Shown here: positions 4,975-39,501 of the stretch, piece after piece
Layout: each line of letters starts with the position of its first letter
Numbering within the stretch: position 1 is the first letter of the stretch
Origin: an uncultured archaeon
GTDB lineage: Archaea > Asgardarchaeota > Hermodarchaeia > Hermodarchaeales > Hermodarchaeaceae
NCBI GenBank assembly: GCA_964347045.1
Contig: CAYFXC010000015.1
Location: 1 to 48,225, forward strand
Direction of reading: 5' to 3'
DNA: 48,225 bases
Notes under the pieces: generated by a model
Database searches by the model: none
Told to the model about the DNA's origin: nothing
The model's input: the letters and a program-made list of their open reading frames with translations, nothing else
Program-made: the position numbers and the translations under genes

Positions 4975-5082
4975 TGGTGGGCCGGGCGTGAATTGAACAC
5001 GCGACCTCCGCCGTTTCCTCGCATCCAGCCTTTCAAGGCTTAATCCTGTGAGAGCGGCGTCATACCACTAGACTACCGGCCC
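4975..5082 (-). tRNA. tRNA-Val(CAC) with a 33-nt intron (about 5015-5047), encoded CCA
   Basis: GGGCCGG/CCGGCCC acceptor stem + ACCA; D arm GTC/GAC; anticodon stem CCGCT/GGCGG with loop CT-CAC-AC after splicing; T arm GCGTG-TTCAATT-CACGC. Confidence 0.92.
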
Positions 5083-39196: not shown

Positions 39197-39426
39197 GCGG
39201 GGGACCCTTCCGAAGGGGGTCTTTGCCGCCAAACCGGTGGCGGGGGTATCTACATGTGTAGACCTCACAGCCAAGCCTGGTTAACGGCGCAGGAGTCACC
39301 TGGAATGGCAGGTTGACGGCGTTACTCAAGATCTAACCAGGTTCATGAGACATCCTGTCCGGCAGCGGTTCGAGGGTTCGAATGAGTGGTGCGCTGCGAG
39401 CTCCGAAATTCCCTCCCCCCGCACCA
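39197..39426 (+). tRNA. tRNA-Leu(CAA) with 4 (probably 5) BHB introns
   Basis: Exons 39197-98, 39242-47, 39269-93, 39324-30, 39352-82, 39410-26 join to GCGGGGGTAGCCAAGCCTGGTTAACGGCGCAGGACTCAAGATCCTGTCCGGCAGCGGTTCGAGGGTTCGAATCCCTCCCCCCGCACCA: an 88-nt class II cloverleaf with A73 and CCA. If the first intron is not used, the gene starts at 39240 with the same mature sequence. Confidence 0.93.
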
Positions 39427-39501
39427 TTGTCCATCGTTACCTTTTTGACTGTAAGTTCCCTAGCTTGTATAACTGATTTCCGTCTCCACGGGGCTAATTC
39501 C

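Follow-up and report, generated by a model that had tools for sequence, protein, structure and literature searches.

The segment at 39240–39426 (+) of the window, by which we mean the whole 48,225-nt stretch of DNA analysed here, is a gene for tRNA-Leu(CAA) that is interrupted at four places (8/9, 30/31, 37/38 and 59/60) and split into five exons (Table 1). The window belongs to an uncultured Asgard archaeon whose GTDB class consists of a single family. Taken as a whole, the locus is best explained, with a probability of roughly 0.7, by four BHB introns, of which the one at 30/31 is removed before the one at 37/38, and by a structured leader in the 43 nt upstream. The presence of four introns in the gene is itself almost certain.

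Anatomy and conservation of the tRNA-Leu(CAA) gene

Joined in silico, the exons form an 88-nt tRNA-Leu(caa) with an encoded CCA end that ARAGORN recognizes as a regular class-II cloverleaf, and removal of the four introns thereby restores a canonical tRNA. The anticodon lies, as a sequence-only reading of the window had noted, on a 7-nt exon (ACTCAAG) between introns of 30 and 21 nt, and the spliced product that carries it is accepted by ARAGORN. Unspliced, the gene is missed both by ARAGORN, which calls no tRNA in the whole window, and by Rfam. A TATA-like box that keeps its position in the tRNA-Leu(CAA) orthologues may serve as a promoter element, and a T-run within the conserved motif GTTACCTTTTTGAC is probably a terminator. 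The sequence ATCGTTACCTTTTTGAC (39430–39449), located 3' of the CCA end, is kept in both genera, a conservation that goes well beyond a plain T-run terminator.

Table 1 Coordinates of the tRNA-Leu(CAA) gene and its flanks (window positions) and of other genes with an upstream acceptor-strand copy (contigs C1, C59 and C7 of the window genome, G000)
Feature	Position	Strand	Evidence or remark
TATA-like box TTTAAAA	39157..39163	+	sequence; 33 nt upstream of first GCGGGGG copy
First copy of 5' acceptor strand, GCGGGGG	39197..39203	+	in tRNA-Leu(CAA) and tRNA-Leu(UAA), 18/18 family genomes
Leader hairpin 1, GACCC/GGGUC	39203..39221	+	96.5% of cells paired, 2 compensatory pairs
Leader hairpin 2, GCCGCC/GGUGGC	39225..39241	+	87% of cells paired; one pair G.U to A-U or G-C
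Exon 1, tRNA positions 1-8 (GCGGGGGU)	39240..39247	+	invariant across orthologues
Intron 8/9, 21 nt	39248..39268	+	full hBHBh' motif
Exon 2, positions 9-30, D arm and 5' anticodon stem	39269..39293	+	in-silico joining
Intron 30/31, 30 nt	39294..39323	+	relaxed HBh' motif
Exon 3, 7-nt micro-exon ACUCAAG, positions 31-37, anticodon CAA	39324..39330	+	invariant, 18 orthologues
Intron 37/38, 21 nt	39331..39351	+	hBH motif
Exon 4, positions 38-59, 3' anticodon stem, long variable arm, 5' T arm	39352..39382	+	
Intron 59/60, 27 nt	39383..39409	+	hBHBh' motif
Exon 5, positions 60-76, encoded CCA	39410..39426	+	in-silico joining
T-run inside conserved motif GTTACCTTTTTGAC	39441..39445	+	sequence, alignment
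tRNA-Leu(UAA)	C1, about 237976-238117 (L153/L168)	-	copy and intron after nucleotide 8
tRNA-Ser(UGA)	C59:1404-1552		GUCGGGA, 10 nt, GCCGGGA-U, then intron
Long tRNA gene	C7:72531-72698		GCCGGGG, 6 nt, GCCGGGA-U, then intron

The tRNA-Leu(CAA) gene is also present in 14 further genomes of the genus and in four of a sister genus; our 18-gene alignment omits one genome (G005), in which the gene is cut by a contig end. Across the two genera the exons are invariant whereas the introns vary. In a 17-sequence alignment 95.1% of the cells in the proposed motif helices are paired, as against 40–52% with slid partners, compensatory changes on both sides occur at eight helix pairs, and the observed covariation score is matched by 0/500 shuffles. 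It is hardly credible that the locus is a decaying pseudogene or that its interruptions are assembly artefacts: standard tRNA finders do miss the gene, but the same arrangement is seen in 18 independently assembled genomes, the intron changes are compensatory around invariant exons, splicing in silico gives a perfect cloverleaf, and no other leucine gene with a CAA anticodon was found in the window genome.

We took a BHB motif to be a 4-bp central helix with a 3-nt bulge on either side, the bulges lying on opposite strands and each being cut after its second base. The 8/9 and 59/60 introns have this form, with 4/4 central pairs in every orthologue that contains the intron. At 8/9 the outer helix is GGC/GCC, the central helix GGGG/CCUC (GGGG/CCYC across orthologues, 4/4 pairs in 17/17) and the 5-bp inner helix UCUAC/GUAGA, which is 100% paired and includes two compensatory pairs; the orthologues have either A or U as first intron base and an invariant first base in the exon that follows, which fixes the splice site at 8/9. 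At 59/60 the T stem is the outer helix and UUCG/CGAA the central helix, and this junction, which like that at 8/9 is ambiguous in a single sequence, is settled because the first intron base varies (U, G or A) and the first base of the next exon is invariant.

The 30/31 motif is of a relaxed type. Its central helix consists of CGC/GCG plus an A.G or A.A mismatch in 18/18 orthologues (3/4 pairs), its outer helix has just 2 bp (G24-C32 and G23.U33), and three pairs covary in the strong 8-bp hairpin that forms its inner helix. The 37/38 motif uses the anticodon stem as its outer helix and CUCA/UGAG as its central helix, with 4/4 pairs in 10/17 sequences and 3/4 in 7/17, where the fourth pair is A.G; its inner helix is unconserved, with 67% of cells paired.

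Shared bases and the predicted order of splicing

The two introns that flank the micro-exon depend on overlapping motifs. C32 and U33 (39325–39326), as the sequence-only reading had pointed out, take part both in the outer helix of the 30/31 motif and in the central helix of the 37/38 motif, and these helices are kept in 17 orthologues. C27 and A28 are also common to both, in the 30/31 central helix and the 37/38 outer helix. Because these four nucleotides are shared, the 30/31 and 37/38 motifs are mutually exclusive, and because adjacent motifs exclude each other, cutting, ligation and refolding would have to alternate.

The claim that the full 37/38 outer helix (CAGGA/TCCTG) can form only after removal of the 30/31 intron needs to be narrowed. 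RNAalifold predicts that the helix can form in the presence of the intron, by using the intron's first A (39294), but the geometry of the motif is still broken: CAGGA/UCCUG then sits 30 nt from the 37/38 central helix, and the 3' bulge is part of a three-way junction. A stable inner helix is missing from the 37/38 motif, which needs the anticodon stem stacked directly on its central helix, and because this stacking is impossible earlier, the 37/38 intron is expected to wait for removal of the 30/31 intron and ligation of its exons. Once the 30/31 intron has been removed, the minimum free energy fold of the anticodon arm has a continuous stem and central helix, with the 3' bulge present.

Folding of each splicing intermediate, a check that the sequence-only reading had proposed, agrees with this order. 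We expressed the cost of a motif as the energy of forcing it relative to the ensemble (ViennaRNA, 37 °C), a nearest-neighbour estimate that takes no account of proteins, tertiary contacts or temperature. The 37/38 motif is cheap only after 30/31 removal in all 18 orthologues, costing 8.8–12.6 kcal/mol before and 0.6–3.8 kcal/mol after, a drop of 6–11 kcal/mol; in the window gene it costs 10–13 kcal/mol with the 30/31 intron present and 3.3–6.5 kcal/mol once it is removed. The 30/31 motif of the window gene costs about 5 kcal/mol in the full precursor and 7–10 kcal/mol if the 37/38 intron goes first, and the cost is mostly higher after prior 37/38 removal in the orthologues as well. In the genus of the window the 30/31 cost is 3.6–5.8 kcal/mol in 13/14 sequences and 8.3 kcal/mol in the remaining one (L009). 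Formation of the 59/60 motif costs 0.4–0.9 kcal/mol in most splicing states and 2.2–2.8 kcal/mol with the 37/38 intron removed first. The 8/9 motif costs 3.0 kcal/mol with the upstream leader and 7.0 kcal/mol without it, and the favoured 8/9 and 30/31 motifs still lie 3–7 kcal/mol above the ensemble minimum.

We therefore consider it probable, from the modelled structures and energies, that the 30/31 intron is spliced before the 37/38 intron. The predicted pathway as a whole has 59/60 and 8/9 early, 30/31 next and 37/38 last. The introns would be cut by the archaeal splicing endonuclease and the exons then joined by RtcB. The 59/60 motif would be the cheapest to form in every state; the 30/31 motif (HBh') would be self-contained, with its inner hairpin, 3-bp central helix and 2-bp outer helix; and the 37/38 motif (hBH) would be completed once the 30/31 intron is out and the exons ligated. 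Throughout, the micro-exon would stay covalently attached on one side. If all four cuts around exon 3 were made before ligation, they would leave a free 7-mer held by just 4 bp to an excised intron, and the mutual exclusion of the motifs would therefore avoid its loss. The logic that sequential cutting and ligation would avoid freeing the 7-nt exon, first put forward in the sequence-only reading, is sound. Of the sequential order proposed there, the precedence of 30/31 over 37/38 holds up in silico (in structure, energetics and 18 orthologues), and the part that concerned the 5' half of the gene and an intron at 2/3 does not.

The alternative is that no order is obligatory: an endonuclease of broad specificity would take out each of the four introns independently of the others, and fast ligation or a protein-held precursor would keep the micro-exon. 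Such an enzyme might not need the outer helix to cut 37/38 at its 5' site, and α2β2 enzymes do cleave relaxed HBh' and hBH motifs (PMC3488258). Predicted costs are positive for all motifs except 59/60, which means that protein binding must contribute anyway, and for the sister genus the model gives the 30/31 motif no advantage over 37/38, with a predicted cost of 8.6–12.1 kcal/mol that is as high as that of the blocked 37/38 motif. Against this, sharing of C27, A28, C32 and U33 precludes coexistence of the two motifs, a 37/38 motif without a contiguous outer helix keeps its central helix alone, and the fall in 37/38 cost after 30/31 removal is seen in every orthologue. We regard splicing without an obligatory order as unlikely.

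A further argument against it comes from pre-tRNAs of the red alga Cyanidioschyzon merolae, in which processing, as RT-PCR showed, follows motif stability and invariably ends with the 37/38 motif (Soma et al. 2013; PMC3728597). The motif ranking predicted for tRNA-Leu(CAA) is the same. The C. merolae system differs in being eukaryotic and in that each of its motifs folds independently, whereas the order in tRNA-Leu(CAA), which is a prediction, would follow from the sharing of bases and the interruption of an outer helix.

The upstream copy of the acceptor strand

The 5' acceptor strand sequence GCGGGGG occurs twice, at 39197 and at 39240. On balance we favour the view that the 43 nt between the copies are a 5' leader and not an intron at 2/3. 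The downstream copy is then more likely to be exon 1, and the upstream copy with the two hairpins that follow it to be a leader of ~50 nt removed by RNase P, which would cleave at an inferred site, 39239/39240. The 3' strand of hairpin 2 overlaps G1-C2 and competes with the 8/9 outer helix.

The sequence-only reading had seen here a fifth intron: exon 1 would be the GC at 39197–39198, the intron 39199–39241, and a 6-nt exon (39242–39247) would join the 7-nt one as a second micro-exon and force a multi-step order. In the window genome the proposed 2/3 motif is indeed a perfect hBHBh' with the second copy (TATC/GGTG, 4/4 pairs, and ACCCT/GGGGT, 5/5 pairs). The same positions form only 1–3/4 and 1–4/5 pairs in the 16 orthologues that have the element, where the leader bases of the central and outer helices are neither conserved nor covarying, and at none of the eight splice positions (0 to 7) between the GCGGGGG copies do the orthologues share a conserved motif. 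A BHB intron at 2/3 is accordingly unsupported, its motif being neither conserved nor covarying across these 16 orthologues and perfect in the window genome alone, and so are the 6-nt exon and the suggested use of 39243–39247 in both the 2/3 and the 8/9 motifs.

Other evidence on a fifth intron points both ways. The first copy lies exactly at the expected tRNA start, 33 nt from the TATA box, and its G1-C2 does not vary in any orthologue or paralogue seen, a constraint not obviously expected of a pure leader. In one genome (G002; L014, contig C12) the tRNA-Leu(CAA) gene lacks both the upstream element and the 8/9 intron and retains the 30/31, 37/38 and 59/60 introns; its tRNA starts at the place that the first GCGGGGG copy takes in the other genomes, with the same 33-nt spacing to the TATA box. 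This joint loss would also fit the loss of two introns through a cDNA copy. On the other side, in one tRNA-Leu(UAA) gene the first copy is shortened, and the upstream copy of an analogous gene on contig C7 has accumulated changes (C3 to U, G7 to A or U and the deletion of 1 nt) whereas its downstream copy is invariant like an exon. Together these observations make five introns, with one at 2/3, rather improbable; a fifth intron of non-canonical type keeps some probability, and we retain the leader as the preferred reading.

An upstream acceptor-strand copy combined with an intron after nucleotide 8 is found in four genes: Leu(CAA), Leu(UAA), Ser(UGA) and the C7 gene, a tRNA-like gene (C7:72544–72698) for which the ARAGORN calls are inconsistent. 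In the last three the near-copy lies 6–36 nt upstream of the true 5' end. The upstream copy pairs 7/7 with the 3' acceptor strand in all four genes, partly by wobble. The copy–intron architecture of tRNA-Leu(UAA) is present in every genome of the family. An adjacent copy is absent in three class-II genes without an intron after nucleotide 8 (two tRNA-Leu and one tRNA-Ser), and for the C7-type gene both copy and intron are absent in three sister-genus genomes and both present in a fourth. Matches to the two-copy pattern that we inspected in other Asgard families are not tRNA genes. We also considered a CCGG-palindrome helix between the copies, a bulge–helix–loop at 7/8 in the Ser-type genes, and set it aside as a coincidence; the Leu sequence cannot form this helix.

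One tentative idea, which we think more doubtful than not, is that introns after nucleotide 8 sequester the 5' acceptor strand and that a surrogate in the leader has co-evolved with them, pairing with the 3' strand and later being discarded by RNase P. For as long as the 8/9 motif ties up the true 5' strand of tRNA-Leu(CAA), the 3' acceptor strand may have the leader copy as its partner. If true, such an arrangement would serve as an intrinsic folding device under which 8/9 splicing comes first, strand exchange second and 5' maturation last. The leader lowers the cost of the 8/9-type motif by 4–8 kcal/mol in the four genes. The reduction is nearly as large when the first copy is complemented or the leader shuffled, which shows no copy-specific folding effect. 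The idea thus fits the co-occurrence of copy and intron, and the folding test gives it no specific support because the controls behave alike. The acceptor-strand copy in the leader, which comes and goes with introns after nucleotide 8, is nonetheless the more original lead from this locus, and if functional it would link the design of the 5' leader, intron position and the timing of RNase P.

A separate upstream repeat was observed at the tRNA-Leu(UAG) gene of contig C33 (−) (reverse-strand coordinates 2171–2390), which has a T-loop intron. A diverged copy of ~25 nt of the gene's own 5' end, comprising the acceptor strand and D-arm-like sequence, lies 92 nt upstream, just after the preceding tRNA, and may be a remnant of duplication or integration.

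Processing enzymes, known systems and other tRNA genes

The window genome encodes two EndA paralogues (frames of 188 and 199 aa; PF01974, 105 and 70 bits), a single RtcB (PF01139, 571 bits) and an RNase P RNA. The two distinct EndA genes would be compatible with an endonuclease of the α2β2 type. One of them (C1:239537–239797, −) is located within a tRNA gene cluster (C1:238037–241297, L227), near tRNA-Leu(UAA); the other is in the region of C7:6355–6609, and RtcB is at C7:129123–130433.

Earlier work has described tRNA splicing that is ordered or nested as well as Asgard tRNA genes with many interruptions, and the tRNA-Leu(CAA) gene is a good example of them and not a new mechanism. Some archaea have 'nested' introns, in which the last motif forms only after the others have been processed (PMC3728597). 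The multi-intron tRNA genes of Thermoproteales (Sugahara et al. 2007, 2008), as they are described in PMC3728597 and PMC4033280, resemble ours in having several non-canonical BHB introns per gene, relaxed HBh' and hBH motifs with a two-subunit endonuclease, and a motif that depends on prior removal of another intron, a dependence that in tRNA-Leu(CAA) is a prediction. They differ in lineage, ours being Asgard and not Thermoproteota, and in number, with four introns in tRNA-Leu(CAA) against a stated maximum of three per tRNA gene in Thermoproteales (PMC4033280; PMC4390854). The Thermoproteales introns also form transposing families, whereas those of tRNA-Leu(CAA) have no detectable genomic copies: a blastn-short search of the genome with the four introns and the leader returned no credible second copy, its single weak match being on contig C17 in sequence unlike a tRNA gene. 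An intron family of the Thermoproteales transposing type was rejected on these grounds.

Among Asgard archaea, genomes are known in which 92–95% of the tRNA genes contain introns (PMC11291895), and a preprint reports up to five intervening sequences per Asgard tRNA gene and many D-arm introns that are missed by tRNAscan-SE (bioRxiv 10.64898/2026.10.13.758758). The present genome is alike in having many multi-intron tRNA genes and D-arm-proximal introns that escape standard tools. These studies focus on Atabeyarchaeia and on Freyrarchaeaceae/Jordiarchaeaceae (PMC11291895; bioRxiv 10.64898/2026.10.13.758758). The main text of the preprint mentions just a few acceptor-stem sequences, and apparently does not treat splicing order, acceptor-strand copies in leaders or Hermodarchaeia. 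Our results extend the pattern of heavily interrupted Asgard tRNA genes to a Hermodarchaeia-like family, and the tRNA-Leu(CAA) gene, compact and naturally occurring, lends itself to testing how archaea avoid the loss of a 7-nt exon that bears the anticodon.

Two functional proposals made in the sequence-only reading are speculative. One is that splicing gates the supply of the UUG decoder. The same genome has a tRNA-Leu(UAA) gene with a single intron, and tRNA-Leu(UAA) could read UUG by standard wobble rules, depending on the modification of U34. The other is that the introns act as a shield against integrative elements; intron protection against such elements is a proposal of Randau and Soll, as cited in PMC3488258.

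Across the whole window genome, the Rfam tRNA model places only about 26 tRNA genes above its cut-off. A scan for T arm, acceptor strand and CCA adds further genes of 145–200 nt (for example C1:41613–41812 and C1:9617–9785), and many multi-intron tRNA genes are therefore hidden from it. All tRNA genes inspected at their 3' end encode CCA, which was itself a requirement of the scan. The window contains a second tRNA gene, 105 nt long at 4978–5082 (−), which has an intervening sequence and, although missed by ARAGORN, scores 56 bits with the Rfam model.
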